NCBI RefSeq assembly: GCF_053078305.1
Contig: NZ_CP166879.1
Reading direction: 5' to 3' (one strand)
Length of the DNA: 64,000 nucleotides
Part shown: positions 1,298 through 64,000 of the stretch, in pieces
How positions within the stretch are numbered: position 1 is the first letter of the stretch
How the letters are laid out: each line of letters starts with the position of its first letter
Program-made: the position numbers and the translations under genes
The notes under the pieces: generated by a model
Database searches by the model: none
What the model was told of the DNA's origin: nothing
Seen by the model: only the letters and a program-made list of their open reading frames with translations

Positions 1298-1768
1298 ATG
1301 AAAACACAACGTGGTTATACGCTGATTGAAACGCTGGTCGCGATGCTGATTTTGGTCATGCTAAGTGCAAGTGGACTCTATGGCTGGCAATACTGGCAGC
1401 AGTCGCAACGGCTATGGCAAACCGCCAGCCAGGCGCGAGACTATTTGCTCTATTTACGTGAAGATGCCAACTGGCATAACCGCGACCACAGTATCAGCGT
1501 TATCAGGGAGGGGACGTTATGGTGCCTTGTGAGTTCCGCTGCTGGGGCCAATACCTGTCATGGCAGTTCACCATTGGTCTTTGTGCCACGCTGGCCCGAA
1601 GTCGAAATGAGCGACCTGACACCTTCGCTTGCCTTCTTTGGCCTGCGCAATACCGCATGGGCCGGGCATATTCGCTTCAAAAACACAACGGGCGAGTGGT
1701 GGCTGGTGGTTTCGCCGTGGGGAAGACTCCGGCTTTGTCAGCAAGGAGAAACAGAAGGATGCCTGTAA
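1298..1768 (+). CDS. ppdA: Prepilin peptidase-dependent protein A (type IV pilin-like)
   Basis: ORF in frame of 1280..1768; N-terminus [22 protein letters not shown] is a prepilin-type N-terminal methylation motif; 156 aa from the ATG at 1298. Confidence 0.85.
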
Positions 1769-2322
1769 AAGAGCAAGGTTTTTCTCTGCTGGAAGTGTTG
1801 ATTGCTATGGCGATCAGTAGCGTATTGTTGTTGGGGGCTGCACGCTTTCTGCCTGCGTTACAGCGTGAAAGTTTAACGAGCACCCGTAAGCTGGCACTGG
1901 AAGATGAAATCTGGCTGCGGGTATTTACCGTCGCGAAGCATCTCCAGAGGGCGGGTTATTGTCATGGCATCTGTACCGGCGAAGGGCTGGAAATTGTCGG
2001 ACAGGGTGACTGTGTCATTGTGCAGTGGGATGCGAACAGTAACGGTATCTGGGATCGCGAACCGGTAAAAGAGTCCGACCAGATTGGATTTCGTCTGAAG
2101 GAGCATGTGCTGGAAACGCTACGCGGTGCGACATCCTGTGAAGGTAAGGGCTGGGATAAAGTCACTAATCCGGATGCCATCATTATCGACACTTTTCAGG
2201 TCGTACGTCAGGATGTCAGCGGCTTCTCGCCGGTGTTGACGGTTAATATGCGTGCTGCCAGTAAGTCTGAACCGCAAACCGTGGTGAATGCCAGCTATAG
2301 CGTGACAGGATTCAACCTGTGA
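1759..2322 (+). CDS. ppdB: Prepilin peptidase-dependent protein B
   Basis: ATG at 1759 gives 187 aa starting [27 protein letters not shown] (prepilin-like); the upstream part of ORF 1519..2322 is treated as a spurious extension. Confidence 0.85.
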
Positions 2323-2726
2323 ACCGCGAAAAGGGTGTTTCGTCACTGGCTCTGGTCCTGATGCTGCTAGTTTTGGGTAGCTTGCTATTACAAGGAATGA
2401 GCCAACAGGATCGCAGTTTTGCCTCTCGCGTGAGCATGGAAAGTCAGTCATTGCGCCGCCAGGCCATCGTTCAGTCGGCGCTGGCGTGGGGAAAAATGCA
2501 CTCCTGGCAGACGCAGCCAGCAGTTCAGTGCTTGCAGTACGCTGGAACCGATGCCCGGGTTTGTTTGCGTTTATTGGCAGATAATGAAGCCTTATTGATT
2601 GCCGGTTATGAAGGCGTTTCGTTGTGGCGAGCAGGTGAAGTCATCGATGGAAAAATTGTTTTTTCGCCACGCGGCTGGAGCGATTTTTGTCCGCTGAAAG
2701 AGGGGGCGTTATGTCAGCTTCCCTGA
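2319..2726 (+). CDS. ygdB: Pilin-like protein in the ppd operon
   Basis: 135-aa ORF with GTG start at 2319, hydrophobic N-terminus, and 4-nt overlap with the ppdB stop. Confidence 0.8.
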
Positions 2727-3034
2727 AGAATCAACAAGGCTTTAGCCTGCCGGAGGTAATGTTGGCGATGGTGTTGATGGTGATGATTGTCACTGCGTTA
2801 TCGGGTTTCCAGCGAACATTAATGAACAGTCTTGCCAGCAGAAACCAGTACCAACAGCTCTGGCGGCATGGTTGGCAGCAAACGCAACTGCGCGCGATTT
2901 CGCCACCTACCAACTGGCAGGTCAACCGAATGCAGACATCGCAGGCGGGATGTGTCAGCATCAGCGTTACGCTAGTTTCACCCGGGGGCAGAGCAGGCGA
3001 GATGACCCGCCTGCATTGCCCGAATCGTCAGTAG
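2711..3034 (+). CDS. ppdC: Prepilin peptidase-dependent protein C
   Basis: ATG at 2711 gives 107 aa starting [27 protein letters not shown] (prepilin-like N-terminus). Confidence 0.85.
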
Positions 3035-3046
3035 TCAGGAGCCGCT

Positions 3047-6000
3047 ATGTTAAGGGTCTACCATTCCAATCGTCTGGACGTGCTGGAAGCGTTGATGGAG
3101 TTTATTGTCGAACGCGAACGGCTGGACGATCCTTTCGAACCAGAGATGATTCTGGTGCAAAGTACCGGTATGGCACAGTGGCTGCAAATGACCCTGTCGC
3201 AAAAGTTTGGTATTGCGGCAAACATTGATTTTCCGCTGCCTGCGAGCTTTATCTGGGATATGTTCGTCCGGGTGTTACCGGAGATCCCCAAAGAGAGCGC
3301 CTTTAACAAACAGAGCATGAGCTGGAAACTGATGACTCTGCTGCCGCAATTGCTGGAGCGCGAAGACTTTACCCTGTTGCGGCATTATCTGACTGACGAT
3401 AGCGACAAGCGAAAACTGTTCCAGCTTTCCTCAAAAGCGGCGGACCTGTTTGACCAGTATCTGGTCTATCGCCCGGAGTGGCTGGCACAATGGGAAACAG
3501 GACATTTGGTTGAAGGGCTGGGAGAAGCACAGGCCTGGCAAGCGCCGTTGTGGAAGGCTCTGGTGGAATATACCCATGAACTCGGGCAACCGCGCTGGCA
3601 CCGCGCGAATCTCTATCAGCGCTTTATCGAAACGCTGGAGTCCGCGACGACCTGCCCGCCGGGGTTACCTTCGCGCGTCTTTATATGCGGTATTTCCGCG
3701 TTACCGCCTGTTTATCTCCAGGCGCTCCAGGCGCTGGGTAAACATATTGAAATCCATCTCCTGTTTACCAACCCCTGCCGTTATTACTGGGGCGACATTA
3801 AAGATCCTGCTTATCTGGCGAAACTACTGACTCGCCAGCGCCGACACAGTTTTGAAGATCGCGAATTACCGCTATTTCGCGACAGCGAAAATGCCGGGCA
3901 GCTCTTTAACAGCGATGGTGAACAGGATGTCGGCAACCCGCTGCTGGCCTCATGGGGCAAGCTTGGGCGCGACTACATTTATCTCCTTTCTGACCTGGAG
4001 AGCAGCCAGGAGCTGGACGCCTTTGTCGATGTCACGCCAGATAACCTGCTGCATAACATTCAGTCTGACATTCTGGAACTGGAAAACCGCGCTGTTGCTG
4101 GTGTGAACATCGAAGAGTTTTCCCGTAGCGATAACAAACGCCCGCTTGATCCACTGGATAGCAGTATCACCTTCCACGTTTGCCATAGCCCGCAGCGTGA
4201 AGTTGAAGTTTTGCACGATCGCCTGCTGGCGATGCTGGAGGAAGACCCGACACTTACTCCGCGCGACATCATCGTGATGGTGGCCGACATCGACAGCTAC
4301 AGTCCGTTTATTCAGGCAGTGTTTGGTAGCGCACCTGCGGATCGTTACCTGCCTTACGCCATTTCCGACCGTCGTGCGCGGCAGTCACATCCGGTACTGG
4401 AAGCGTTTATCAGCCTGTTATCACTGCCTGACAGTCGCTTTGTGTCAGAGGATGTGCTGGCGCTGCTGGATGTGCCGGTGCTGGCGGCGCGGTTTGACAT
4501 CACCGAAGAAGGGCTGCGTTATTTACGCCAGTGGGTCAACGAGTCCGGCATTCGTTGGGGCATAGATGACGACAACGTTCGCGAGCTGGAACTCCCCGCC
4601 ACCGGACAACACACCTGGCGATTTGGCCTGACGCGTATGTTGTTGGGCTACGCGATGGAGAGCGCGCAGGGCGAGTGGCAATCGGTTCTACCTTATGATG
4701 AATCGAGCGGCTTAATTGCAGAACTGGTGGGGCATCTGGCTTCACTGCTAATGCAGCTAAACATCTGGCGTCGCGGGCTTGCACAGGAGCGTCCGCTGGA
4801 AGAGTGGTTGCCGGTTTGTCGCGATATGCTCAACGCCTTCTTCCTGCCGGATGCGGAAACCGAAGCGGCGATGACGCTGATCGAACAACAATGGCAGGCG
4901 ATTATCGCCGAAGGTTTAGGTGCGCAGTATGGCGACGCGGTGCCGCTGTCACTATTGCGTGATGAACTGGCACAGCGCCTGGATCAAGAACGTATCAGCC
5001 AGCGTTTTCTCGCCGGACCGGTTAACATTTGTACTCTGATGCCAATGCGTTCAATTCCGTTCAAAGTGGTTTGCCTGCTGGGAATGAACGACGGCGTTTA
5101 TCCACGTCAGCTTGCGCCATTGGGCTTTGACCTGATGAGCCAGAAACCGAAGCGTGGCGACCGTAGCCGTCGCGATGACGACCGCTATCTGTTCCTGGAA
5201 GCGTTAATTTCAGCGCAGCAAAAACTCTATATCAGCTATATCGGGCGTTCCATTCAGGATAACAGTGAACGTTTCCCGTCGGTACTGGTGCAGGAACTGA
5301 TCGACTACATCGGGCAAAGTCATTATCTACCGGGCGATGAAGCGCTCAACTGTGATGAAAGCGAGGCAAGGGTAAAAGCGCATCTTACTTGCCTCCATAC
5401 CCGAATGCCGTTTGATCCACAAAACTATCAGCCAGGCGAACGACAAAGCTATGCTCGTGAATGGCTACCTGCGGCCAGCCAGGCTGGTAAAGCACATTCT
5501 GAATTTGTTCAGCCGCTGCCGTTTACCTTACCGGAAACCGTGCCGCTGGAAACGCTACAACGATTCTGGGCACATCCGGTGCGGGCGTTCTTCCAGATGC
5601 GTTTGCAGGTGAACTTCCGTACTGAAGACAGCGAAATCCCCGACACCGAGCCATTTATTCTGGAAGGACTTAGCCGTTATCAAATCAATCAGCAGTTATT
5701 GAATGCACTGGTTGAGCAGGATGATGCCGAACGCTTGTTCCGCCGCTTCCGGGCGGCAGGGGATTTACCGTATGGCGCTTTTGGTGAAATTTTCTGGGAA
5801 ACACAGTGCCAGGAGATGCAGCAGCTTGCCGACAGAGTCATTGCCTGTCGCCAGCCGGGGCAGAGTATGGAAATTGATCTCGCTTGCAACGGTGTGCAGA
5901 TAACTGGTTGGTTGCCGCAGGTGCAGCCGGATGGCTTGTTGCGCTGGCGTCCCTCTTTATTAAGTGTGGCGCAGGGAATGCAACTTTGGCTGGAACACCT

Positions 6001-6415
6001 TGTCTACTGTGCCAGCGGTGGTAATGGTGAAAGTCGCCTTTTTCTACGCAAAGACGGCGAGTGGCGTTTTCCGCCGCTTGCAGCCGAACAGGCTTTGCAT
6101 TACCTCTCACAACTGATTGAGGGGTATCGTGAAGGGATGTCCGCGCCATTGCTGGTGTTACCTGAAAGTGGCGGCGCGTGGCTAAAAACCTGTTATGACG
6201 CGCAAAACGATGCCATGCTGGATGACGATTCCACGTTGCAAAAAGCCCGTACGAAATTCCTTCAGGCTTACGAAGGCAACATGATGGTGCGTGGCGAAGG
6301 TGATGATATCTGGTATCAAAGGCTCTGGCGGCAATTAACACCAGAGACAATGGAGGCAATCGTTGAACAGTCGCAACGTTTCCTGTTACCGCTGTTTCGC
6401 TTTAATCAGTCATGA
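3047..6415 (+). CDS. recC: Exodeoxyribonuclease V gamma subunit
   Basis: 1122-aa ORF starting MLRVYHSNRLDVLEALMEFIVERE…, recognised as RecC. Confidence 0.95.
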   Translation: MLRVYHSNRLDVLEALMEFIVERERLDDPFEPEMILVQSTGMAQWLQMTLSQKFGIAANIDFPLPASFIWDMFVRVLPEIPKESAFNKQSMSWKLMTLLPQLLEREDFTLLRHYLTDDSDKRKLFQLSSKAADLFDQYLVYRPEWLAQWETGHLVEGLGEAQAWQAPLWKALVEYTHELGQPRWHRANLYQRFIETLESATTCPPGLPSRVFICGISALPPVYLQALQALGKHIEIHLLFTNPCRYYWGDIKDPAYLAKLLTRQRRHSFEDRELPLFRDSENAGQLFNSDGEQDVGNPLLASWGKLGRDYIYLLSDLESSQELDAFVDVTPDNLLHNIQSDILELENRAVAGVNIEEFSRSDNKRPLDPLDSSITFHVCHSPQREVEVLHDRLLAMLEEDPTLTPRDIIVMVADIDSYSPFIQAVFGSAPADRYLPYAISDRRARQSHPVLEAFISLLSLPDSRFVSEDVLALLDVPVLAARFDITEEGLRYLRQWVNESGIRWGIDDDNVRELELPATGQHTWRFGLTRMLLGYAMESAQGEWQSVLPYDESSGLIAELVGHLASLLMQLNIWRRGLAQERPLEEWLPVCRDMLNAFFLPDAETEAAMTLIEQQWQAIIAEGLGAQYGDAVPLSLLRDELAQRLDQERISQRFLAGPVNICTLMPMRSIPFKVVCLLGMNDGVYPRQLAPLGFDLMSQKPKRGDRSRRDDDRYLFLEALISAQQKLYISYIGRSIQDNSERFPSVLVQELIDYIGQSHYLPGDEALNCDESEARVKAHLTCLHTRMPFDPQNYQPGERQSYAREWLPAASQAGKAHSEFVQPLPFTLPETVPLETLQRFWAHPVRAFFQMRLQVNFRTEDSEIPDTEPFILEGLSRYQINQQLLNALVEQDDAERLFRRFRAAGDLPYGAFGEIFWETQCQEMQQLADRVIACRQPGQSMEIDLACNGVQITGWLPQVQPDGLLRWRPSLLSVAQGMQLWLEHLVYCASGGNGESRLFLRKDGEWRFPPLAAEQALHYLSQLIEGYREGMSAPLLVLPESGGAWLKTCYDAQNDAMLDDDSTLQKARTKFLQAYEGNMMVRGEGDDIWYQRLWRQLTPETMEAIVEQSQRFLLPLFRFNQS

Positions 6416-6590
6416 GCGCTGTATAAAAATTGCGCAATCTATCCGCTTACTTTATGATGCGCACCAGTCACGGACTGATGGTTATATAAACATAGGCTGA
6501 CTCGTGCAGCACAAGATTAAATTCTGGCAGATGATTTGCGTTAACCTGTTGAATCTGGCCAGAAAATAAAGTTGATTATGAGGTCCGTGA

Positions 6591-9479
6591 ATGCCCCGCA
6601 GCACCTGGTTCAAAGCATTATTGTTGTTAGTTGCCCTTTGGGCACCATTAAGTCAGGCAGAAACGGGATGGCAGCCGATTCAGGAAACCATCCGTAAAAG
6701 TGATAAAGATAACCGCCAGTATCAGGCTATACGTCTGGATAACGGTATGGTGGTCTTGCTGGTTTCTGATCCGCAGGCAGTTAAATCGCTCTCGGCGCTG
6801 GTGGTGCCCGTTGGGTCGCTGGAAGATCCCGAGGCGTACCAGGGGCTGGCACATTACCTTGAACATATGAGTCTGATGGGGTCGAAAAAGTACCCGCAGG
6901 CTGACAGTCTGGCCGAATATCTCAAAATGCACGGCGGTAGTCACAATGCCAGCACGGCACCGTATCGCACGGCTTTCTATCTGGAAGTTGAGAACGACGC
7001 CTTGCCCGGTGCGGTAGACCGCCTGGCCGATGCTATTGCAGAACCCTTGCTCGACAAGAAATACGCCGAACGTGAGCGTAATGCAGTGAACGCTGAATTA
7101 ACCATGGCGCGTACGCGTGACGGGATGCGCATGGCACAGGTCAGCGCAGAAACCATTAACCCGGCACACCCCGGTTCAAAGTTTTCTGGTGGTAACCTCG
7201 AAACTTTAAGCGACAAACCTGGTAATCCGGTGCAGCAGGCGCTGAAAGATTTCCACGAGAAGTACTATTCCGCCAATTTGATGAAGGCGGTTATTTACAG
7301 TAATAAACCGCTGCCGGAGTTGGCAAAAATGGCGGCGGACACCTTTGGTCGCGTGCCGAACAAAGAGAGCAAAAAACCGGAAATCACCGTGCCGGTAGTC
7401 ACCGACGCGCAAAAGGGCATTATCATTCATTACGTCCCAGCGCTGCCGCGTAAAGTTCTGCGCGTTGAGTTTCGCATCGATAACAACTCAGCGAAGTTCC
7501 GCAGTAAAACGGATGAATTGATTACCTATCTGATTGGTAATCGCAGCCCAGGTACACTGTCTGACTGGCTGCAAAAGCAGGGGTTAGTTGAGGGCATTAG
7601 CGCCAACTCCGATCCTATCGTCAACGGCAACAGCGGCGTATTAGCGATCTCTGCGTCTTTAACCGATAAAGGTCTGGCGAATCGCGATCAGGTTGTGGCG
7701 GCTATTTTTAGCTACCTCAATTTGTTACGTGAAAAAGGGATCGATAAACAATACTTCGATGAACTGGCGAATGTGCTGGATATCGACTTCCGTTATCCGT
7801 CAATCACCCGTGATATGGATTACGTCGAATGGCTGGCAGATACCATGATTCGCGTTCCGGTTGAGCATACGCTGGATGCAGTCAATATTGCCGATCGGTA
7901 CGATGCTAAAGCAGTAAAAGAACGTCTGGCGATGATGACGCCGCAGAATGCGCGTATCTGGTATATCAGCCCGAAAGAGCCGCACAATAAAACGGCTTAT
8001 TTTGTCGATGCGCCGTATCAGGTCGATAAAATCAGCGAACAAACTTTCGCTGACTGGCAGCAAAAAGCTGCCAGTATTGCGCTCTCCTTACCGGAGCTTA
8101 ACCCCTATATTCCTGACGATTTCTCGCTGATTAAGTCAGAGAAGAAATATGACCATCCAGAGCTGATTGTTGATGAGTCGAATCTGCGCGTGGTGTATGC
8201 GCCAAGCCGTTATTTTGCCAGCGAACCCAAAGCTGATGTCAGCCTGATTTTGCGTAATCCGAAAGCCATGGACAGCGCCCGCAATCAGGTGATGTTTGCG
8301 CTCAATGATTATCTCGCAGGGCTGGCGCTTGATCAGTTAAGCAACCAGGCGTCGGTTGGTGGCATAAGTTTTTCCACCAACGCTAACAACGGCCTTATGG
8401 TTAATGCTAATGGTTACACCCAGCGTCTGCCGCAGCTGTTCCAGGCATTGCTCGAGGGATACTTTAGCTATACCGCTACGGAAGATCAGCTTGAGCAGGC
8501 GAAGTCCTGGTATAACCAGATGATGGATTCCGCAGAAAAGGGTAAAGCGTTTGAGCAGGCGATTATGCCCGCGCAGATGCTCTCGCAAGTGCCGTACTTC
8601 TCGCGAGATGAACGGCGTAAAATTTTGCCCTCCATTACGTTGAAAGAGGTGCTGGCCTATCGCGACGCCTTAAAATCAGGGGCTCGACCAGAGTTTATGG
8701 TTATCGGCAACATGACCGAGGCCCAGGCAACAACGCTGGCACGCGATGTGCAAAAACAGTTGGGCGCTGATGGTTCAGAGTGGTGTCGAAACAAAGATGT
8801 AGTGGTCGATAAAAAACAATCCGTCATCTTTGAAAAAGCCGGTAACAGCACCGACTCCGCACTGGCAGCGGTATTTGTACCGACTGGCTACGATGAATAC
8901 ACCAGCTCAGCCTATAGCTCTCTGTTGGGGCAGATCGTACAGCCGTGGTTCTACAATCAGTTGCGTACCGAAGAACAATTGGGCTATGCCGTGTTTGCGT
9001 TTCCAATGAGCGTGGGGCGTCAGTGGGGCATGGGCTTCCTTTTGCAAAGCAATGATAAACAGCCTTCATTCTTGTGGGAGCGTTACAAGGCGTTTTTCCC
9101 AACCGCAGAGGCAAAATTGCGAGCGATGAAGCCAGATGAGTTTGCGCAAATCCAGCAGGCGGTAATTACCCAGATGCTGCAGGCACCGCAAACGCTCGGC
9201 GAAGAAGCATCGAAGTTAAGTAAAGATTTCGATCGCGGCAATATGCGCTTCGATTCGCGTGATAAAATCGTGGCCCAGATAAAACTGCTGACGCCGCAAA
9301 AACTTGCTGATTTCTTCCATCAGGCGGTGGTCGAGCCGCAAGGCATGGCTATTCTGTCGCAGATTTCCGGCAGCCAGAACGGGAAAGCCGAATATGTGCA
9401 TCCTGAAGGCTGGAAAGTGTGGGAGAACGTCAGCGCGTTGCAGCAAACAATGCCCCTGATGAGTGAAAAGAATGAGTGA
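6591..9479 (+). CDS. ptrA: Protease III (pitrilysin), periplasmic zinc metalloprotease
   Basis: 962-aa ORF with signal peptide and the inverted zinc-binding motif HYLEH; lies between recC and recB as in E. coli. Confidence 0.95.
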   Translation: MPRSTWFKALLLLVALWAPLSQAETGWQPIQETIRKSDKDNRQYQAIRLDNGMVVLLVSDPQAVKSLSALVVPVGSLEDPEAYQGLAHYLEHMSLMGSKKYPQADSLAEYLKMHGGSHNASTAPYRTAFYLEVENDALPGAVDRLADAIAEPLLDKKYAERERNAVNAELTMARTRDGMRMAQVSAETINPAHPGSKFSGGNLETLSDKPGNPVQQALKDFHEKYYSANLMKAVIYSNKPLPELAKMAADTFGRVPNKESKKPEITVPVVTDAQKGIIIHYVPALPRKVLRVEFRIDNNSAKFRSKTDELITYLIGNRSPGTLSDWLQKQGLVEGISANSDPIVNGNSGVLAISASLTDKGLANRDQVVAAIFSYLNLLREKGIDKQYFDELANVLDIDFRYPSITRDMDYVEWLADTMIRVPVEHTLDAVNIADRYDAKAVKERLAMMTPQNARIWYISPKEPHNKTAYFVDAPYQVDKISEQTFADWQQKAASIALSLPELNPYIPDDFSLIKSEKKYDHPELIVDESNLRVVYAPSRYFASEPKADVSLILRNPKAMDSARNQVMFALNDYLAGLALDQLSNQASVGGISFSTNANNGLMVNANGYTQRLPQLFQALLEGYFSYTATEDQLEQAKSWYNQMMDSAEKGKAFEQAIMPAQMLSQVPYFSRDERRKILPSITLKEVLAYRDALKSGARPEFMVIGNMTEAQATTLARDVQKQLGADGSEWCRNKDVVVDKKQSVIFEKAGNSTDSALAAVFVPTGYDEYTSSAYSSLLGQIVQPWFYNQLRTEEQLGYAVFAFPMSVGRQWGMGFLLQSNDKQPSFLWERYKAFFPTAEAKLRAMKPDEFAQIQQAVITQMLQAPQTLGEEASKLSKDFDRGNMRFDSRDKIVAQIKLLTPQKLADFFHQAVVEPQGMAILSQISGSQNGKAEYVHPEGWKVWENVSALQQTMPLMSEKNE

Positions 9480-12400
9480 TGTCGCCGAGACACTAGATCC
9501 TTTGCGCTTGCCCTTACAGGGCGAGCGTCTGATTGAAGCCTCTGCCGGCACAGGCAAAACCTTTACGATTGCGGCGCTCTATTTGCGCCTGTTACTTGGA
9601 CTAGGCGGTTCCGCCGCCTTTCCCCGCCCGCTGACCGTTGAAGAACTGCTGGTGGTCACCTTTACCGAGGCTGCCACGGCAGAATTGCGCGGTCGTATCC
9701 GTAGCAATATCCACGAGTTGCGCATCGCCTGTCTGCGTGAAACCACCGACAATCCACTGTACGAACGTCTGCTGGAAGAGATCGACGATAAAGCGCAAGC
9801 CGCGCAGTGGTTGTTGTTAGCCGAACGGCAGATGGATGAAGCGGCAGTCTTTACTATTCACGGCTTTTGCCAGCGCATGCTCAACCTGAATGCCTTTGAA
9901 TCCGGCATGCTGTTTGAGCAGCAGCTGATTGAAGATGAGTCTCTGCTACGCTACCAGGCCTGCGCCGATTTCTGGCGTCGCCACTGCTACCCGCTGCCGC
10001 GTGAAATAGCCCAGGTCGTCTTTGAAACCTGGAAAGGGCCGCAGGCGTTGCTGAGCGATATTAATCGTTATCTGCAAGGCGAAGCGCCGGTTATCAAAGC
10101 ACCGCCGCCCGATGATGAAACGCTGGCTTCCCGTCACGCGCAAATTGTGGCGCGTATTGATACGGTAAAACAGCAGTGGCGCGACGCAGTGGGTGAACTG
10201 GATGCGCTGATCGAATCTTCTGGTATTGATCGACGCAAGTTTAACCGTAGCAATCAGGCTAAATGGATCGACAAGATCAGCGCCTGGGCAGAAGAAGAGA
10301 CAAACAGTTATCAGTTGCCGGAGTCGCTGGAAAAATTCTCCCAGCGTTTCTTAGAAGATCGCACGAAGGCCGGGGGGGAAACCCCGCGACATCCACTGTT
10401 TGAGGCGATCGATCAACTGCTTGCAGAACCATTGTCGATCCGCGATCTGGTGATCACCCGCGCATTGGCTGAGATCCGCGAAACAGTAGCGCGTGAAAAA
10501 CGCCGCCGTGGCGAATTGGGTTTTGATGACATGTTAAGTCGGCTCGATTCCGCGCTGCGTAGCGAAAGCGGTGAGGTGTTGGCAGCGGCGATCCGTACGC
10601 GATTCCCGGTGGCAATGATCGATGAATTTCAGGATACCGACCCCCAGCAGTACCGAATTTTTCGCCGTATCTGGCACCATCAGCCGGAAACCGCATTGTT
10701 GCTAATTGGCGACCCGAAGCAGGCCATATATGCATTCCGGGGTGCGGATATCTTCACTTATATGAAGGCGCGTAGCGAAGTTCACGCCCACTACACTTTA
10801 GACACCAACTGGCGTTCCGCACCAGGAATGGTGAACAGCGTGAACAAGCTTTTCAGCCAGACTGATGACGCGTTCATGTTTCGCGAAATACCGTTTATTC
10901 CAGTGAAATCAGCCGGGAAAAATCAGGCGTTACGTTTTGTATTTAAAGGTGAAACGCAGCCTGCGATGAAAATGTGGCTGATGGAAGGCGAAAGCTGCGG
11001 CGTTGGCGACTATCAAAGTACCATGGCGCAGGTATGTGCTGCGCAAATCCGCGACTGGCTACAAGCCGGACAGCGGGGCGAAGCGTTGCTGATGAACGGC
11101 GACGAAGCGCGTCCGGTGCGTGCTTCGGACATCAGTGTGCTGGTGCGCAGCCGCCAGGAGGCCGCCCAAGTGCGCGATGCCTTAACGTTGCTGGAAATCC
11201 CTTCCGTTTACCTTTCGAACCGCGACAGTGTTTTTGAAACTCTGGAAGCGCAGGAAATGCTTTGGTTGTTGCAGGCGGTGATGACGCCCGAACGTGAGAA
11301 CACCCTGCGTAGTGCGCTGGCAACGTCAATGATGGGGCTGAACGCGCTGGATATCGAAACGCTGAATAATGACGAACATGCGTGGGACGCGGTGGTCGAA
11401 GAGTTCGATGGTTATCGGCAAATCTGGCGCAAACGTGGCGTTATGCCGATGCTGCGGGCGCTGATGTCGGCGCGTAACATTGCAGAAAACTTGCTGGCAA
11501 CGGCAGGCGGTGAGCGGCGTCTTACCGATATCTTGCATATCAGCGAACTGCTACAAGAAGCCGGAACGCAGCTGGAAAGTGAACATGCGCTGGTACGCTG
11601 GTTATCGCAACATATCCTCGAGCCAGACAGTAATGCCTCCAGCCAACAAATGCGCCTCGAAAGTGATAAACATCTGGTGCAGATTGTCACGATCCATAAA
11701 TCGAAAGGGCTGGAATATCCGCTTGTCTGGTTGCCATTTATTACCAATTTCCGCGTCCAGGATCAGGCGTTTTATCACGATCGCCACTCGTTTGAGGCTG
11801 TTCTGGATCTTAACGCTGCGCCAGAAAGTGTCGATCTCGCGGAGGCCGAACGTCTGGCGGAAGATCTGCGTTTGCTTTACGTGGCGCTGACGCGTTCGGT
11901 TTGGCATTGTAGTCTCGGCGTTGCACCGCTGGTGCGCCGTCGTGGCGATAAAAAAGGTGACACCGACGTTCACCAAAGTGCGCTCGGGCGTTTGCTGCAA
12001 AAAGGGGAACCGCAAGATGCGGCAGGGCTTCGCACCTGTATTGAAGCGTTATGCGATGATGATATTGCCTGGCAAACGGCACAAACTGGTGATAACCAGC
12101 CATGGCAGGTTAATGATGCTTTAACTGCAGAATTGAATGCCAGGACATTACAACGATTGCCCGGCGATAACTGGCGCGTCACCAGCTACTCAGGTTTACA
12201 ACAGCGTGGTCACGGAATCGCTCAGGATCTGATGCCACGGCTGGATGTCGATGCCGCAGGCGTTGCCAGCATCGTTGAAGAACCGACGTTAACACCGCAT
12301 CAGTTCCCGCGCGGTGCGTCACCGGGGACGTTTTTGCACAGTTTGTTTGAAGACCTGGATTTTACCCAGCCGGTTGAACCGAACTGGGTGCGGGAAAAAC

Positions 12401-13014
12401 TGGAACTTGGCGGTTTTGAAGCGCACTGGGAACCTGTATTAACCGAATGGATCACCGCTATTCTTCAGGCGCCGCTCAATGAAACTGGTGTTAGCCTGAG
12501 TCAACTTTCCGCTCGTAATAAACAGGTGGAGATGGAGTTTTATCTGCCGATTAGTGAACCACTTGTCGCCAGTCAGCTTGATACGTTAATCCGCCAGTTT
12601 GACCCGCTATCAGCAGGCTGCCCGCCGCTGGAGTTCATGCAGGTGCGCGGCATGTTAAAAGGCTTTATCGACCTGGTGTTTCGCCACGAAGGGCGTTATT
12701 ACCTGCTTGACTATAAATCCAACTGGTTGGGTGAAGACAGTTCGGCTTACACCCAACAGGCTATGGCAGCGGCGATGCAGGCACACCGCTATGATCTGCA
12801 ATATCAGCTTTATACCCTGGCGCTGCACCGTTATCTGCGACATCGCATTGCTGATTACGACTATGAGCGCCACTTTGGCGGCGTTATCTATCTGTTCCTG
12901 CGTGGCGTTGATAAAGAACATCCGCAACAAGGGATCTACGCGACCCGACCCAACGCCGAGTTGATTGCCCTGATGGATGAGATGTTTGCCGGTATGACCC
13001 TGGAGGAGGCGTGA
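9472..13014 (+). CDS. recB: Exodeoxyribonuclease V beta subunit (helicase-nuclease)
   Basis: 1180 aa from the ATG at 9472 ([13 protein letters not shown]…), Walker A motif GTGKTFT; start overlaps the ptrA stop by 8 nt. Confidence 0.95.
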
Positions 13015-14840
13015 TGAAATTGCAAAAGCAATTACTGGAAGCTGTGGAGCACAAACAGCTACGCCCGCTGGATGTGCAATTTGCCCTGACCGTGGCGGGA
13101 GATGAACATCCTGCCGTCACCCTCGCGGCGGCACTGTTAAGTCATGATGCCGGAGAGGGACACGTTTGTTTGCCGCTTTCACGACTGGAAAATAACGAGG
13201 CGTCGCATCCGCTGTTGGCGACCTGTGTCAGTGAAATCGGTGAGCTACAAAATTGGGAAGAATGCTTGTTGGCTTCTCAAGCGGTCAGCAGGGGAGATGA
13301 ACCCACGCCGATGATCCTCTGTGGCGATCGTCTTTATTTGAATCGCATGTGGTGTAACGAGCGGACGGTAGCGCGCTTCTTCAATGAGGTGAATCATGCC
13401 ATCGAGGTTGATGAAGCTCTACTGGCGCAAACCCTGGACAAACTTTTTCCAGTAAGCGATGAAATTAACTGGCAAAAAGTTGCAGCGGCAGTGGCGCTGA
13501 CGCGGCGGATCTCGGTGATTTCCGGCGGCCCAGGCACCGGTAAAACGACCACCGTGGCGAAGTTGCTGGCAGCGTTAATTCAAATGGCCGACGGCGAACG
13601 CTGCCGTATCCGTCTGGCTGCACCAACGGGTAAAGCTGCCGCGCGCTTAACCGAATCTCTCGGCAAGGCTTTGCGACAGTTACCGCTGACCGATGAACAA
13701 AAGAAACGCATTCCGGAAGATGCCAGCACTTTGCACCGATTGCTGGGCGCGCAGCCGGGTAGCCAGCGTTTACGTCATCATGCCGGTAACCCGCTGCATC
13801 TTGATGTGCTGGTGGTAGATGAAGCGTCAATGATCGATCTGCCTATGATGTCGAGACTGATCGACGCCTTGCCAGATCATGCGCGAGTGATCTTTCTCGG
13901 CGATCGTGATCAACTGGCCTCGGTTGAGGCTGGGGCTGTGCTGGGCGATATCTGCGCTTATGCCAACGCGGGCTTTACCGCCGAGCGTGCCAGGCAGCTA
14001 AGCCGCCTGACGGGGACTCACGTTCCGGCAGGAACTGGCACAGAAGCGGCATCTTTGCGCGACAGTCTCTGCCTGCTGCAAAAAAGCTATCGTTTCGGCA
14101 GCGATTCTGGCATTGGTCAGTTAGCTGCGGCGATCAACCGTGGTGATAAAACGGCAGTGAAAACCGTTTTTCAGCAGGATTTTACTGATATCGAAAAACG
14201 ACTTTTACAGAGCGGCGAAGATTATATTGCGATGCTTGAGGAAGCTCTTGCGGGTTACGGACGTTATCTGGATCTGCTGCAAGCGCGTGCCGAGCCGGAT
14301 TTAATCATTCAGGCGTTCAATGAGTACCAGCTTTTGTGCGCCCTGCGGGAAGGGCCATTTGGCGTGGCTGGACTGAATGAGCGAATTGAGCAGTTTATGC
14401 AACAGAAGCGCAAAATTCATCGTAATCCGCACTCTCGTTGGTACGAAGGCCGACCGGTGATGATTGCCCGTAATGACAGCGCGCTTGGGTTGTTTAATGG
14501 CGATATCGGTATTGCGCTGGATCGCGGGCAGGGGACGCGCGTCTGGTTTGCGATGCCGGACGGCAATATTAAGTCTGTGCAACCGAGTCGCTTGCCAGAG
14601 CACGAAACTACGTGGGCGATGACGGTACATAAATCGCAGGGATCGGAGTTCGACCATGCGGCGTTGATTTTACCGAGCCAACGCACGCCGGTAGTAACGC
14701 GAGAGCTGGTATACACCGCGGTGACCCGCGCGCGTCGCCGTCTGTCGCTGTATGCCGATGAGCGTATATTAAGTGCGGCAATCGCCACTCGTACTGAGCG
14801 GCGCAGTGGTCTGGCGGCGTTGTTTAGTTCGCGGGAATAA
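13014..14840 (+). CDS. recD: Exodeoxyribonuclease V alpha subunit
   Basis: 608 aa with Walker A motif [10 protein letters not shown]; start overlaps the recB stop (ATGA). Confidence 0.95.
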
Positions 14841-14848
14841 ACGTAATT

Positions 14849-14889
14849 GCCGGATGCGACGCACGAGTGTTACGCCTGCCGCATCCGGC
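14849..14889. repeat. REP-like palindrome between the convergent recD and argA genes
   Basis: GCCGGATGCGACGC…GCCTGCCGCATCCGGC inverted repeat. Confidence 0.6.
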
Positions 14890-14901
14890 GATTTTCATCG
14901 C

Positions 14902-16233
14902 TTACCCTAAATCCGCCATCAACACTTTGGATTTACGCTGGTAGTTGTACAACTGCTTTTTGCTCTCGGGCAATAAATCAATATCCACCGGGGTAAATCC
15001 ACGTTCCTGGAACCAGTGAATACTGCGCGTGGTCAGCACAAACAATTTGCTTAAGCCGCTCTGCTTCGCCTGAGCGGCAATGCGTTCCAGCAGAACCTCG
15101 CCCCGTGATGAGCTGCGGTAATCCGGGTGAACAGCCACACAGGCCATTTCCCCAATCTTCTCTTCCGGGAACGGATAGAGCGCGGCGCAGGCAATAGTCG
15201 TGTTATCGCGCTGAATAATAGTGAATTTATCGATTTCCATCTCCAGCTGCTCGCGAGAACGGCGTACCAGAATACCTTGCTGCTCCAGTGGGCGAATCAA
15301 CTCCAGAATACCGCCAATATCGTTGATTGTTGCGCGACGAATCTGCTCGGCGCTTTCCATCACAATCTGCGTACCGATACCGTCGCGTGAGAACAACTCT
15401 TGCAACAGCGCGCCATCTTCCTGATAACTGATTAAATGACAGCGACGCACGCCGCTGCGGCAGGCTTTCACTGCGCCACGCAAAAAGCGCACCGTACCGG
15501 AGTTGTAATCGCCTTTCTCTTCCTGGGCTTCTACCCGCGATTGCGCTTCGTTAGGGAAAAGTTCGGAGACAATATCACCGTCGTCATTAGTGACGCCCTG
15601 GGAAGAGCAAAAACCAATCATCTTTTCAGCTTTCAGTTTGATGGCCAGTTGAGTAGCAATCTCTTCCGAGGTCAGATTAAAGCTCTCGCCAGTGACTGAA
15701 ACAGCGACCGGCCCCATTAGCACTATTGCACCGCTGTCCAGTTGACGATGGATCGCGTCTTCATCAATCCGCCGGATACGCCCGCTATGGCAGTAATCCA
15801 CGCCGTCATCGACGCCCAGCGGCTGGGCAATAATAAAATTGCCACTGACGACGTTGATATGCGCGCCCTGTAGCGGCGTGTTATTGAGACTCATCGACAG
15901 GCGAGCAGTAATATCCAGTTGCAATGTTCCCGCAGCCTGCTTCACCAGTTCCAGTGTTTTGGCGTCGGTCACACGTATATTCTTGTGATACAGCGGTTCG
16001 TGGTGATGCGCAGCCAGATTTGCGTCGATCTGCGGACGTGCGCCATAGACCACCACCAGACGGATGCCGAGGCTGTGCAGCAACCCGATATCATTAACGA
16101 TACTGGAGAAATTCTCATGCTCAATGGCTTCACCGCCGAGCATGATGACAAACGTTTTTCCCCGGTGGGTATTGATATAGGGAACCGAATGGCGGAATCC
16201 CTCGACCAGCTCGGTTTTACGTTCCTTTACCAC
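14902..16233 (-). CDS. argA: N-acetylglutamate synthase
   Basis: Translation recognised as ArgA; 443 aa if started at the GTG giving [27 protein letters not shown]…; the 22 codons further upstream in ORF 14902..16299 are treated as extension. Confidence 0.9.
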
Positions 16234-17791: not shown

Positions 17792-17868
<77 letters not shown>

Positions 17869-17900
17869 TCACCGTACTGCTTTATTTCATCAAATTTGAT

Positions 17901-17977
<77 letters not shown>

Positions 17978-18010
17978 TCACCGTACTGCTTTACTTCATC
18001 AAATTTTAAT

Positions 18011-18087
<77 letters not shown>

Positions 18088-19481: not shown

Positions 19482-19579
19482 GCCGGATGCGGCGTGAACG
19501 CCTTATCCGGCCTACAAATCATGCAAATCCAAAATATTGCAGGAGTTATGTAGGCCTGATAAGCGTAGCGCATCAGGCA
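19482..19579. repeat. BIME / REP pair in the mltA-tcdA intergenic region
   Basis: GCCGGATGCGGCGTGAACGCCTTATCCGGCCTACA … TGTAGGCCTGATAAGCGTAGCGCATCAGGC, typical REP units in inverted orientation. Confidence 0.85.
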
Positions 19580-22571: not shown

Positions 22572-22776
22572 AAAAAAAAGCACCGCAATTAGGCGGTGCT
22601 ACATTAATCACTATGGACAGACAGGGTAAATGTACAGGAAGTGAAAAAAGGTAGCTTTGCTACCATGGTCTGAATCGCAGACCAATTGCAAACACAACAA
22701 CACAACATCACAACCGTAAGCCAAAAGTTCACCAGAACACGCATTCCGATAAAACTTTTCGTTCCGGCTCAGGAAG
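22572..22776 (-). ncRNA. gcvB: GcvB small regulatory RNA
   Basis: Minus strand reads ACTTCCTGAGCCGGAACGAAAAGTTTTATCGGAATGCGTGTTCTGGTGAAC…GTTGTGATGTTGTGTTGTTGTGTTTGCAATTGG… (GU-rich R1 region) and ends in a hairpin plus T-run; divergent from gcvA. Confidence 0.9.
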
Positions 22777-22905
22777 TGCCGCCACTATAGGTATTTGCTG
22801 GTAGAAGCTCAACGGACAATTTATAATGGCTCAGATTAAAAAAACTAATAGGTTACACACTGTGATCTAATTGTTAAATTCATTTAACATCAAAGTTTAA
22901 AAGCC

Positions 22906-40948: not shown

Positions 40949-41317
40949 GTCGACAGGGAGTCAGACAACGAAGTGAACATCAGGATGATGACACTTCTGA
41001 AGGACACACCAGGATGGTGTTTCAGGGAAAGGCTTCTGGATGAAGCGAAGAGGATGACGCAGGACGCGTTAAAGGACACCTCCAGGATGGAGAATGAGAA
41101 CCGGTCAGGATGATCCGGTGGGTCAGGAAGGCCAGGGACACTTCAGGATGAAGTATCACATCGGGGTGGTGTGAGCAGGAAGCAATAGTTCAGGATGAAC
41201 GATTGGCCGCAAGGCCAGAGGAAAAGTTGTCAAGGATGAGCAGGGAGCAACAAAAGTAGCTGGAATGCTGCGAAACGAACCGGGAGCACTGTGAATACAG
41301 TGCTCCCTTTTTTTATT
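40949..41317 (+). ncRNA. csrB: CsrB regulatory RNA (CsrA-sequestering)
   Basis: Starts GTCGACAGGGAGTCAGACAACGAAGTGAACATCAGGATGATGACAC…; carries many CAGGATG / AGGA repeats and ends in a strong hairpin (GGGAGCACTGTGAATACAGTGCTCCC) plus T-run. Confidence 0.92.
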
Positions 41318-41359: not shown

Positions 41360-41689
41360 ATGACCACTCATGACCGCGTTCGTCTCCAGTTGCAGGCGCT
41401 TGAAGCGTTACTGCGTGAACATCAGCACTGGCGAAACGATGAACCCCAGCCACATCAATTTAACAGTACCCAACCGTTCTTTATGGACACCATGGAACCA
41501 CTGGAGTGGTTGCAGTGGGTGCTGATCCCGCGAATGCACGATTTGTTAAATAACAACCAGCCGTTACCGGGCGCTTTTGCCGTTGCTCCCTATTATGAAA
41601 TGGCGCTGGCGACGGACCATCCGCAACGCGCGCTTATTCTGGCTGAGTTGGAAAAACTGGATGCTCTTTTTGCGGATGATGCGAGCTAA
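41360..41689 (+). CDS. yqcC: DUF446-family protein
   Basis: 109-aa ORF whose stop overlaps the truC start. Confidence 0.85.
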   Translation: MTTHDRVRLQLQALEALLREHQHWRNDEPQPHQFNSTQPFFMDTMEPLEWLQWVLIPRMHDLLNNNQPLPGAFAVAPYYEMALATDHPQRALILAELEKLDALFADDAS

Positions 41690-42471
41690 TGCTGGAAATA
41701 CTCTATCAGGATGAATGGCTGGTTGCGGTAAATAAACCCTCCGGCTGGCTGGTTCACCGCAGCTGGCTGGATCGCGACGAGAAAGTAGTGGTCATGCAAA
41801 CCGTGCGTGACCAGATAGGACAGCATGTTTTTACTGCTCATCGTCTGGACCGACCAACTTCTGGTGTGTTGTTGATGGGATTATCCAGCGAGGCCGGACG
41901 GCTGCTGGCACAACAGTTTGAACAGCACCAAATCCAGAAACGTTACCATGCGATTGTGCGCGGCTGGTTGATGGAAGAAGCGGTGCTGGATTATCCACTG
42001 GTGGAAGAACTGGACAAAATCGCTGATAAATTTGCCCGCGAAGATAAAGGCCCGCAGCCAGCAGTGACGCATTATCGCGGTCTGGCGACCGTAGAAATGC
42101 CGGTAGCGACCGGACGTTACCCGACCACGCGCTACGGCCTAGTGGAACTGGAGCCGAAAACCGGACGCAAACATCAGCTTCGCCGACATCTTGCCCATTT
42201 GCGTCATCCGATTATTGGCGATAGCAAACATGGCGATTTACGCCAGAATCGCAGCGGTGCTGAGCATTTTGGTCTTCAGCGGTTAATGCTGCATGCCAGT
42301 CAGTTGTCATTGACGCATCCTTTTACTGGCGAGCCGCTGACTATTCACGCGGGCCTGGACGACACCTGGATGCAGGCGTTATCACAATTTGGCTGGCGCG
42401 GTCTGCTTCCTGAAAATGAAAGGGTTGAGTTCAGTGCGCCATCAGGTCAGGATGGAGAGATAAGTTCCTAA
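41689..42471 (+). CDS. truC: tRNA pseudouridine(65) synthase
   Basis: 260-aa ORF, RluA-family pseudouridine synthase. Confidence 0.9.
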
Positions 42472-54134: not shown

Positions 54135-54383
54135 ATGATCCACAGTAGCGTAAAGCGTTGGGGAAATTCACCGGCGGTGCGGATCCCGGCTACGTTAATG
54201 CAGGCGCTCAATCTGAATATTGATGATGAAGTGAAGATTGACCTGGTGGATGGCAAATTAATTATTGAGCCAGTGCGTAAAGAGCCCGTATTTACGCTTG
54301 CTGAACTGGTCAACGACATCACGCCGGAAAACCTCCACGAGAATATCGACTGGGGAGAGCCGAAAGATAAGGAAGTCTGGTAA
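54135..54383 (+). CDS. mazE: Antitoxin MazE
   Basis: 82-aa [30 protein letters not shown]…. Confidence 0.95.
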
Positions 54384-54718
54384 TGGTAAGCCGATACGTA
54401 CCCGATATGGGCGATCTGATTTGGGTTGATTTTGACCCGACAAAAGGTAGCGAGCAAGCCGGACATCGTCCGGCTGTTGTCCTGAGTCCGTTCATGTACA
54501 ACAACAAAACAGGTATGTGTCTGTGTGTTCCTTGTACAACGCAATCAAAAGGATATCCGTTCGAAGTTGTTTTATCCGGTCAGGAACGTGATGGCGTAGC
54601 GTTAGCTGATCAGGTAAAAAGTATCGCCTGGCGGGCAAGAGGAGCAACGAAGAAAGGAACGGTTGCCCCAGAGGAATTACAACTCATTAAAGCCAAAATT
54701 AACGTACTGATTGGGTAG
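54383..54718 (+). CDS. mazF: Toxin MazF (ACA-specific endoribonuclease)
   Basis: 111-aa ORF overlapping the mazE stop, [53 protein letters not shown]…. Confidence 0.95.
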   Translation: MVSRYVPDMGDLIWVDFDPTKGSEQAGHRPAVVLSPFMYNNKTGMCLCVPCTTQSKGYPFEVVLSGQERDGVALADQVKSIAWRARGATKKGTVAPEELQLIKAKINVLIG

Positions 54719-60956: not shown

Positions 60957-61847
60957 CTAGCGCCCGGAAGCGCCACCGCCACCAGATGAACCGCCACCAC
61001 CGCTGAAATTGTCATTGTTGAATGAAGAGGATGACGATGATGAATAGTGGGAGGAAGAATTGCTTCTTGTATGGCGTGATGGCTGGTTGACATCACGCAT
61101 CAAATCCCGAACTTTTTTGCCGAAGGGAGTAACAGCGATGGCGACAGCCAGGAACGGTGTGGCGAAGCAGAGTAATGTTGCGAGTACTCCCCAGCTTCCG
61201 CTGAAGCCTGCTATAGGTAAAACAAAGGCCAGTACAATAGCTGCGAAGCAAATTACTCCCAGCGTTTTGATATATCCTCTGGCAGAAATAAACGTCAGTA
61301 CTATCGCCCAGACTAACAATGCCCACCAACCGCTAAAGGGCAAAGGGTGATCGGTCGGTGTAATCGTTGCTAAATTATTCCCCGTCAGACGACTTTCAAG
61401 ATCGCTGATCCCCTTTTGTAAACCGACAGCAAGGTCGCCTTTTTTAAATGCAGGAATAATATTGTTGCGAATAATTTTCCCGGACTGCGCATCCGTAATA
61501 ATACCTTCCAGTCCGTAACCGATTTCAATACGCACGGTATGATCCTGCCAGGCGACTAACAGTAGAACGCCATTATCGCGGTCTTTATCACCCGGTTTCC
61601 AGCTATCGAATACCCGCGTTGCGTACTGCTCGATGGTTTCATCGCCTGTTGTATCAACCACTAACACGACCAACTGTGCGTGGTTTTTTTGCGTCAGGGC
61701 TTTAATCTGGTTGGTCAGGGTGTTTACTTCGCTGTTTGTTAATGTGCCGGTTAAGTCATTCACATACTTGGGGGATTCAGGTACTGGAATTTGTGTGGCA
61801 AACACAGATGAACAGAAGAAAGCCATAAGGAAGATAAAATTTCGCAT
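60957..61847 (-). CDS. TPM-domain membrane protein (YgcG-like), LemA-proximal paralogue
   Basis: From the ATG at 61847 (MRNFIFLMAFFCSSVFA signal peptide), TPM-like region closely similar to the eno-proximal paralogue, hydrophobic segments and a Ser-rich/Gly-rich tail. Confidence 0.8.
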   Translation of the reverse strand: MRNFIFLMAFFCSSVFATQIPVPESPKYVNDLTGTLTNSEVNTLTNQIKALTQKNHAQLVVLVVDTTGDETIEQYATRVFDSWKPGDKDRDNGVLLLVAWQDHTVRIEIGYGLEGIITDAQSGKIIRNNIIPAFKKGDLAVGLQKGISDLESRLTGNNLATITPTDHPLPFSGWWALLVWAIVLTFISARGYIKTLGVICFAAIVLAFVLPIAGFSGSWGVLATLLCFATPFLAVAIAVTPFGKKVRDLMRDVNQPSRHTRSNSSSHYSSSSSSSFNNDNFSGGGGSSGGGGASGR

Positions 61848-63645: not shown

Positions 63646-64000
63646 GAGTTCCCCGCGCTAGCGGGGATAAACCGTAATGAGTCAGGGGAATACCGAATAT
63701 TTTATAGAGTTCCCCGCGCTAGCGGGGATAAACCGAAATTTATCGAGATCGGCAGGGGTTACTGACAGAGTTCCCCGCGCTAGCGGGGATAAACCGGCCG
63801 TTAATCCGGACTGCCAGCGAATAACGCTGAGTTCCCCGCGCTAGCGGGGATAAACCGCAACATATTTAAACGATTTAAGCCAGGCATATGAGTTCCCCGC
63901 GCTAGCGGGGATAAACCGGGATTCATCACGCGGTTATCCGGGGGCCGTTAGAGTTCCCCGCGCTAGCGGGGATAAACCGGTGGTTGCGGGGTTATCGGTG
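63646..64000 (+). CRISPR. Type I-E-like CRISPR array; 6 repeats and 5 complete spacers in the window, array continues beyond the window end
   Basis: 29-nt repeat GAGTTCCCCGCGCTAGCGGGGATAAACCG at 63646, 63707, 63768, 63829, 63890 and 63951, with 32-nt spacers: TAATGAGTCAGGGGAATACCGAATATTTTATA / AAATTTATCGAGATCGGCAGGGGTTACTGACA / GCCGTTAATCCGGACTGCCAGCGAATAACGCT / CAACATATTTAAACGATTTAAGCCAGGCATAT / GGATTCATCACGCGGTTATCCGGGGGCCGTTA; a sixth spacer is cut by the window end. Confidence 0.95.

Follow-up and report, generated by a model that had tools for sequence, protein, structure and literature searches.

Two conserved stop/start overlaps of different build in the ptrA-recB-recD operon and their plausible contribution to translational coupling

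The window, a stretch of 64,000 nucleotides of E. coli DNA, contains the gene order thyA-ppd-recC-ptrA-recB-recD-argA. All features described below lie on the plus strand. recC (3047-6415), an intact open reading frame identified by annotation transfer, encodes the gamma subunit of RecBCD and forms a separate transcription unit upstream of ptrA. The 175-nt intergenic region between the two genes (6416-6590) constitutes the ptrA leader. ptrA (6591-9479), the first gene of the ptrA-recB-recD operon, encodes pitrilysin (protease III), and residues 24-962 of its product match PDB 1q2l_A. recB (9472-13014) encodes the beta subunit of 1180 residues and recD (13014-14840) the alpha subunit of 608 residues. 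Translated RecB aligns over residues 1-1180 with the solved chain 1w36_B and RecD over residues 1-608 with 1w36_D, in both cases from end to end. RefSeq places the recB and recD starts at the same positions in near-identical E. coli genomes, the closest to the window. The gene identities, together with a gene order in which recC is set apart, are those of the E. coli-type ptrA-recB-recD operon.

The ptrA stop codon TGA occupies positions 9477-9479 and the recB ATG positions 9472-9474. As originally predicted, the two genes overlap by 8 nt (ATGAGTGA, 9472-9479), which corresponds to a spacing of -8. At the next junction, the recB stop TGA (13012-13014) and the recD ATG (13014-13016) have one base in common, giving a spacing of -1. 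The predicted 1-nt overlap is present, but the motif that makes it is TGATG and not the ATGA quoted for it. The string ATGA is found at 13014-17, where it is composed of the recD start and a second in-frame recB stop: recB ends in the frame GCG TGA TGA, and its tandem stops span 13012-13017. The second stop is a vestigial ATGA (-4) overlap. The similar overlaps named for yqcC/truC (41687-41691, overlapping at 41689) and mazE/mazF (54381-54385, overlapping at 54383) also exist, each of 1 nt within TAATG. The recB stop is TGA in the window versus TAA in all 5,424 matching complete E. coli genomes; the overlap at recB/recD is unaffected by this change.

The operon has long been sequenced, its original E. 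coli sequence papers reportedly being those of Finch et al. (1986), and its overlaps are textbook features. Both the overlaps and the idea of coupling are already in print. The sharing of one nucleotide by the recB stop and the recD start has been described in E. coli K-12 (PMC2586629), and a 'potential translational coupling' of ptrA and recB, with the ribosome-binding region of recB located inside ptrA, has been noted (PMC12342828). Within the window, 10 of the 38 co-directional neighbour pairs overlap (26%), whatever their function, with spacings of -1 (four pairs), -4 (two), -8 (two), -10, and -16. Overlaps across prokaryotes are enriched at three spacings, namely -4, -1, and -8 (PMC12548453). 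The overlaps exceed chance but are ordinary, with nothing special about them. What is added here is a refinement and not a discovery: the family-wide persistence of the overlaps, the differing build of the two junctions, and the restriction of what coupling could serve to the matching of RecB and RecD.

Conservation was assessed in 80 species-level Enterobacteriaceae genomes with RecB identities of 68-98%. recB and recD overlap in 80/80, with a spacing of -4 in 71 and -1 in 9, and are never separated. All nine loci of the -1 class read T[AG]A-TGA. ptrA and recB overlap in 80/81, with spacings of -4 in 45, -8 in 32, and -20 in 3; the single exception has a spacing of +413. The junctions slide between spacing classes yet remain overlapped. 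Within E. coli, a 60-mer at the ptrA/recB junction is identical in 5216 of 5425 genomes. recC and ptrA are 175 nt apart in the window and 110-186 nt apart in all but one of 79 relatives. A RecB homologue search returned only Escherichia and Citrobacter and was of no use for outgroups; these were taken from 50%-identity representatives, a set skewed to AT-rich reduced genomes. Three free-living outgroups with a recC-recB-recD arrangement overlap at both junctions, with spacings of -1/-4 (L089), -4/-7 (L090), and -1/-7 (L093). The recCBD genes of P. syringae are also three overlapping reading frames (PMC2828478). The persistence of the overlaps could in part reflect a mutational ratchet rather than selection.

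The two junctions differ in their Shine-Dalgarno (SD) sites: in the window, an SD inside the upstream gene is present for recD, whereas that for recB is at background level. The recD site, GGAGGAGG (13002-13009), is situated within the Leu-Glu-Glu-Ala tail of RecB. With a dG of -12.1 kcal/mol, its anti-SD duplex ranks among the top 1% of the background, and the median across loci, -9.9 kcal/mol, is attained by only 1% of control windows. In all relatives (80/80), a GGAG or GAGG motif precedes the recD start by 4-11 nt. The C-terminal 8-mers of RecB exist in 64 distinct versions, and the recD SD is kept although the tail residues vary. The recB start lacks an SD in the window and is preceded by A-rich sequence; its duplex dG of -2.5 kcal/mol equals the background median, and the median across loci is -3.0 kcal/mol. 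The absence of a recB SD is not universal among relatives, as a moderate GGAG (-5.9 to -6.9 kcal/mol) precedes recB in some of those with a -4 spacing. The Intestinirhabdus alba locus (L020), in which a 413-nt insert separates ptrA from recB and recB carries AGAGGA (-5.8 kcal/mol), was considered as a natural experiment. It was rejected as evidence of compensation, since GGAG motifs of the same quality occur at several loci that do overlap.

On balance, the two junctions are best regarded as ordinary, evolutionarily conserved stop/start overlaps in a known operon that probably permit some termination-reinitiation coupling, with each junction built differently. The analysis shows overlapping and conserved junctions, unequal SD sites, and no significant local structure, whereas the coupling, plausible at both junctions, is inferred. 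Coupling is most efficient at spacings from -4 to +3 nt (PMC12548453). A spacing of -8 to +10 nt has been taken as predictive of termination-reinitiation, and subunits of heteromeric complexes are 4.5-fold enriched among pairs spaced in this way (PMC10666635). Both junctions, at -8 and -1 nt, fall within the latter range. No direct test of coupling at either junction, such as a premature upstream stop with mRNA controlled, was found in the literature, and neither PMC8144880 nor PMC5318159 lists recB, recD, or ptrA in its supplements.

At the ptrA/recB junction (-8), the sequence around the SD-less recB start is A-rich and unstructured; the start and the 18 nt upstream are unpaired in both the minimum free energy (MFE) and the centroid structures of the local fold. 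This build suggests that ribosomes coming straight from termination on ptrA probably initiate much of the very low translation of recB. Because coupling efficiency drops once the overlap exceeds -4 (PMC12548453), coupling at the -8 junction may be no more than weak. Reinitiation from ptrA to recB would explain how Hfq binding 2.9 kb upstream, in the ptrA leader, alters the amount of RecB per mRNA. Positions 6541-6576 of the leader correspond to the 36-nt Hfq-binding region of K-12 (36-mer from PMC12342828) with three substitutions. When the Hfq site of the ptrA 5'UTR was deleted, RecB protein per mRNA doubled, from 7.9 to 16.3 (PMC12342828). In our reading, this effect is most simply accounted for if the translation of recB follows that of ptrA. 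A second Hfq site, located within recB, or an altered fate of the mRNA could instead be responsible for the effect.

At the recB/recD junction (-1, TGATG), the strong and conserved GGAGG in the last recB codons could hold terminating ribosomes and thereby support efficient reinitiation, which would keep RecD near RecB. The same GGAGG could recruit free ribosomes too, which would make the coupling facultative. A RecD-sized polypeptide, for which the authors invoke a minor internal promoter, persists in recB-recD fusion mutants without a recB stop (PMC2586629). The persistence of this protein indicates that recD can be initiated independently and, together with the very strong SD of recD, that coupling at this junction is not obligatory. 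It comes close to an experimental demonstration of independent initiation, the finding that the original prediction had named as speaking against it. A consensus scan of positions 2900-15100 revealed no promoter-like site near either junction, a result that is silent on the reported minor recD promoter. Terminator-like matches in the same interval occurred only at chance level.

The overlaps had been proposed to help balance the subunits of RecBCD. This proposal stands at most for the matching of RecB and RecD and fails for the whole enzyme, since PtrA is no subunit, recC belongs to a separate operon, and a RecD-sized protein is made without the recB stop. PtrA is a periplasmic protease, and as it is not part of RecBCD, no balance among the subunits of the complex can come from the ptrA/recB overlap. 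RecBCD numbers fewer than 10 molecules per cell and does harm when overproduced, which makes it a genuine question how its subunits are held at low and matching levels. A figure quoted for RecB is 33-93 copies per cell. ptrA, recB, and recD are co-transcribed (PMC12342828, PMC2586629), and recC forms its own operon (PMC12342828). Because this operon is separate and lies 175 nt upstream of ptrA, RecC cannot be coupled. RecC and PtrA are thus outside any stoichiometric coupling.

In a less probable view, the overlaps result from genome compaction and an easy mutational origin as mere by-products, and free 30S subunits initiate each gene independently, with expression ratios set by the initiation region of each gene and by ORF-wide mRNA structure. 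Three of the four bases in NTGA already come with an NTG start, and more than a quarter of the co-directional pairs in the window overlap regardless of function; against a mere by-product stands the retention of both overlaps throughout the relatives (80/80 and 80/81) while junction sequences and spacing classes shift. For recD, independent initiation agrees with the very strong SD and with the RecD-sized protein made without recB termination. For recB, the unpaired A-rich region could permit an SD-independent de novo start, but recB is expressed although it has no SD, and it is difficult to see, without a translational link between ptrA and recB, how the Hfq site in the ptrA leader would affect RecB per mRNA. 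Evidence from other gene pairs points both ways. In genome-wide ribosome profiling, relative translation efficiency varies to about the same extent in overlapping and in non-overlapping pairs (PMC5318159), as expected if each gene were initiated on its own. Among native E. coli pairs with a -4 spacing, four of five tested were coupled by termination-reinitiation, usually in an SD-dependent manner, with an SD requirement that differs from pair to pair; bioBF was uncoupled (PMC6728339).

An improbable alternative is that the recB or recD start is sequestered by pairing with upstream coding sequence and opened only by ribosomes translating the end of the upstream gene. RNA unfolding of this kind is presented as a classical mechanism for several E. 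coli pairs in the introduction of PMC6728339 and the abstract of PMC12548453, and the MFE fold contains a weak hairpin that involves part of the recD SD. However, 120-nt local folds around the two starts are no more stable than shuffled sequences (z = -0.84 for recB and +0.19 for recD), and the recB start is unpaired as described above. The lack of a significant local fold at either start favours reinitiation over the unfolding mechanism. An annotation artefact, with the true start at an in-frame GTG 9 nt upstream of the recB ATG (9463) or 3 nt upstream of the recD ATG (13011) in the window, or at a downstream ATG, is very unlikely: the GTG candidates were rejected because the ATGs are at the projected position in all relatives and the solved chains match end to end, an in-frame stop lies 9 nt upstream of the recB ATG in the -4 relatives inspected by eye (Enterobacter-type junction), the GTG before recD is GTA in the other E. 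coli genomes, and either GTG start would overlap the upstream gene anyway.

Termination-reinitiation at the two differently built junctions remains the preferred reading. A history of the operon may be sketched, though only tentatively. An ancestor of the Enterobacteriaceae may have gained ptrA between recC and recB, and recB may then have lost its own SD and come to rely on ribosomes delivered by ptrA translation. The protease gene would in this way have become a translational driver of RecB and a conduit for Hfq, setting a very low and low-noise level of RecB, while the strong SD of recD would hand the output of RecB on to RecD.

The operon in the window closely resembles that of E. coli K-12, with which it shares genes, gene order, and junctions; the recB stop codon differs. 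Among experimentally studied pairs, hyfH-hyfI, astD-astB, ydbH-ynbE, and menD-menH (PMC6728339) are likewise co-directional with very short overlaps. Their downstream SD is inside the upstream gene, as at recB/recD, whereas recB has no SD. These pairs are also of -4 spacing and were tested by experiment, whereas the junctions here have spacings of -8 and -1 and are putatively coupled. In rplK-rplA, translational repression of the first gene is passed downstream (PMC12548453), the same model as that proposed for the action of Hfq at the ptrA leader on RecB. The transfer was demonstrated experimentally for rplK-rplA, which encodes ribosomal proteins, whereas that from ptrA to recB is deduced and concerns two functionally unrelated proteins. 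The recC-recB-recD operons without ptrA, in P. syringae (PMC2828478) and in L089, L090, and L093, also overlap at recB/recD and upstream of recB. The gene upstream of recB is, however, recC in these operons, encoding a true subunit, and ptrA in Enterobacteriaceae. The recB SD is good in the three outgroups (-7.4 to -9.3 kcal/mol, n=3) and weak in Enterobacteriaceae.

The ptrA, recB and recD genes of the window are joined by two stop/start overlaps. The ptrA gene (6591–9479) ends in a TGA stop codon at 9477–9479 and the recB ATG lies at 9472, leaving 8 nt, ATGAGTGA, common to both genes. The recB TGA stop codon (13012–13014) shares one base with the recD ATG (13014–13016). Both overlaps were correctly anticipated in the original prediction, as were the similar ones at yqcC/truC (41689) and mazE/mazF (54383), each of 1 nt with the sequence TAATG. 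The label ATGA given there to the recB/recD junction fits only in part. The motif of the 1-nt overlap is TGATG, but the recB frame ends with tandem in-frame stops (GCG TGA TGA, 13012–13017), and the second of these forms the string ATGA with the recD start. The annotated recB and recD starts are sound. Their ATGs are conserved in all relatives, and the products of 1180 (RecB) and 608 (RecD) residues align over their full length with the RecB and RecD chains of PDB 1w36. The window PtrA matches protease III.

The window is E. coli chromosomal DNA. It carries RefSeq annotation transferred from the closest genomes and matches 5,425 of 5,426 complete E. coli genomes at ~98–99.5% identity. Its gene run is lgt/thyA, recC-ptrA-recB-recD, argA, the fuc operon, csrB, barA, relA, mazEF, queE and a CRISPR array, with repeats adjoining queE at the window end (63706–63857). 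Known RNA features are sRNA ES036 (19515–19557, plus strand), GcvB (22572–22777, minus strand) and CsrB (40958–41317, plus strand). Three tandem tRNA genes (17795–18087, minus strand) are tRNA-Met according to the reference-genome annotation.

Ten of the 38 co-directional neighbour pairs in the window overlap, namely ppdA/ppdB (−10 nt), ppdB/ygdB (−4), ygdB/ppdC (−16), ptrA/recB (−8), recB/recD (−1), csdA/csdE (−1), ygdD/rlmM (−8), yqcC/truC (−1), mazE/mazF (−1) and two TPM-domain genes (−4). Three overlap spacings, −4, −1 and −8, are enriched in bacteria and archaea (2025 review, PMC12548453), and the E. coli genome contains 820 co-directional pairs within −8 to +10 nt (PMC10666635). The ptrA/recB and recB/recD overlaps exceed chance, yet are not distinctive. 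The first three pairs form a chain (ppdA-ppdB-ygdB-ppdC, 1298–3034) that ends 12 nt short of recC; ppdA is intact in the window, but the annotation of strain PE164 makes it a pseudogene that contains an internal stop. The two overlapping TPM-domain genes and lemA, the most divergent gene of the window (96.5%), adjoin a further TPM-domain gene (61176–61847, minus strand) that is an incomplete pseudogene by reference-strain annotation.

A RecB scan with one genome per species yielded 80 Enterobacteriaceae loci (L-numbers) of 68–98% amino-acid identity, in which stops and starts were placed by tblastn and ORF extension. Junction counts include the window itself; L073 stops inside recB and contributes no recB/recD junction. 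The ptrA and recB genes overlap in 80 of 81 loci, with spacings of −4 (45 loci), −8 (32), −20 (3) and +413 (1). The −8 class comprises Escherichia, Citrobacter, Salmonella, Phytobacter and some Kosakonia. In the three loci with 20-nt overlaps (L065, L081 and L083; Kosakonia and one Enterobacter sp. record), AGA replaces the TGA stop of the −8 form, which extends ptrA to the next stop codon. In Intestinirhabdus alba (L020), the sole Enterobacteriaceae locus with the two genes separated, a 413-nt GC-rich insert (~3567–4000) parts ptrA from recB. The recB and recD genes overlap in all 80 loci, by 4 nt in 71 and by 1 nt in nine. All nine −1 junctions (the window and L004–L007, L009, L014, L030 and L080) have the sequence T[AG]A-TGA, so the 1-nt overlap derives from the ancestral ATGA overlap, in which the final sense codon has mutated to a stop (CAA to TAA, for instance). 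This form occurs separately in Escherichia, in a few Citrobacter and in a MAG labelled UBA5654, three groups in all. The recC and ptrA genes never overlap, and their gap is 110–186 nt in 78 of 79 loci.

Outgroup loci were drawn from 50%-identity representatives. Three free-living genomes with a recC-recB-recD arrangement overlap at both junctions (L089, −1/−4; L090, −4/−7; L093, −1/−7), and the spacings in L084 are +45/−8. The P. syringae recCBD genes are likewise three overlapping frames (PMC2828478). Five AT-rich reduced genomes (L085, L086, L087, L091 and L095; GC 16–39%, some records 0.46–1.4 Mb) have lost the recB/recD overlap, with +16 to +115 nt now between the genes, and often the Shine-Dalgarno (SD) site too, which may reflect AT-biased stop-codon gain or relaxed selection.

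SD sites were scored as the free energy of pairing between the 20 nt upstream of the start and the 3′ end of 16S rRNA. The recB site scores −2.5 kcal/mol in the window (median across loci −3.0, range −6.9 to −1.9), which is the median of background positions within the recB coding sequence. The recD site scores −12.1 kcal/mol (median −9.9, range −13.4 to −5.9), in the top 1% of the background, and its median is reached by 1% of control windows 30–90 nt upstream. The recC and ptrA sites, scored in the window only, have values of −6.6 and −6.3 kcal/mol. GGAG or GAGG occurs 4–11 nt before the recD start in 80 of 80 loci, among which the last eight RecB residues take 64 distinct versions; the nucleotide motif is therefore conserved above the encoded protein. 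The recB gene is preceded by an A-rich stretch (the final 12 nt are 49% A), and its start is left unpaired in the local fold. Local folds of 120 nt have no excess stability versus shuffled sequence at the recB (z = −0.84) or recD start (z = +0.19). In three recC-recB outgroups the recB SD is good (−7.4 to −9.3 kcal/mol); on this small sample (n = 3), weakness of the recB SD is thus associated with the ptrA arrangement.

The 3′ end of recB (0.9 kb, 12099–13013) contains 60 mismatches (6.6%) to the closest E. coli genome, against 0–6 per kb in the flanks, and is at most 94.2% identical to complete E. coli genomes spanning it. This patch carries 12 amino-acid changes in RecB 876–1180 and ends at the recB stop codon, which is TGA in the window but TAA in the complete E. 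coli genome used for comparison. None of 5,424 E. coli genomes has an identical copy of the recB/recD junction 60-mer, and the exact RecB protein is present on 32 public contigs labelled E. coli. Its sequence suggests that the patch was imported by recombination from a diverged Escherichia lineage. The 90%-identity cluster of this RecB (23,426 members) also includes 608-residue RecD proteins, which could be a clustering artefact or bridging via fused recB-recD gene calls.

The best reading of the junctions is probably that termination-reinitiation couples translation in two different ways. At ptrA/recB, a ribosome ending at 9477–9479 would step back 5 nt to the ATG and, unaided by an SD, reinitiate there with low efficiency, which would fit the very low RecB level. 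Deletion of a 36-nt Hfq-binding region in the ptrA 5′UTR raised RecB per mRNA from 7.9 to 16.3 (PMC12342828), a rise for which, we infer, ptrA-to-recB reinitiation would account. The region lies at 6541–6576 in the window, with three substitutions relative to the quoted K-12 sequence. At recB/recD, the strong SD could hold the terminating ribosome, and RecD would then track RecB. Four of five other E. coli pairs tested were coupled and usually needed an SD (PMC6728339), which supports the termination-reinitiation reading in general terms. Coupling peaks between −4 and +3 nt and weakens as overlaps lengthen (PMC12548453). A RecD-sized protein persists in recB-recD fusions without the recB stop (PMC2586629); recD initiation can therefore be independent, from either full-length mRNA or a minor-promoter transcript. 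Genome-wide, the relative translation of overlapping pairs is about as variable as that of non-overlapping pairs (PMC5318159). The RecBCD subunit balance originally proposed as the purpose of coupling is applicable to RecB and RecD only; PtrA is no subunit and RecC is transcribed separately. Tentatively, and with some doubt, ptrA might now be the translational driver of SD-less recB and a route for Hfq control, which would be of modest interest if true.

The junction overlaps are an already known feature and of low interest. They were reportedly first described in the 1986 Nucleic Acids Research sequence papers of Finch and colleagues. The one-nucleotide overlap of the recB termination and recD initiation codons is in PMC2586629 (2008), and the two operons, recC alone and ptrA-recB-recD, are in PMC12342828 (eLife 2025). 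The coupling reading is reasonable as a published hypothesis that is only partly applicable here. Complex stoichiometry as the role of short overlaps is the conclusion of PMC10666635, in which complex subunits are encoded by 30.4% of closely spaced pairs versus 6.8% of distant pairs.
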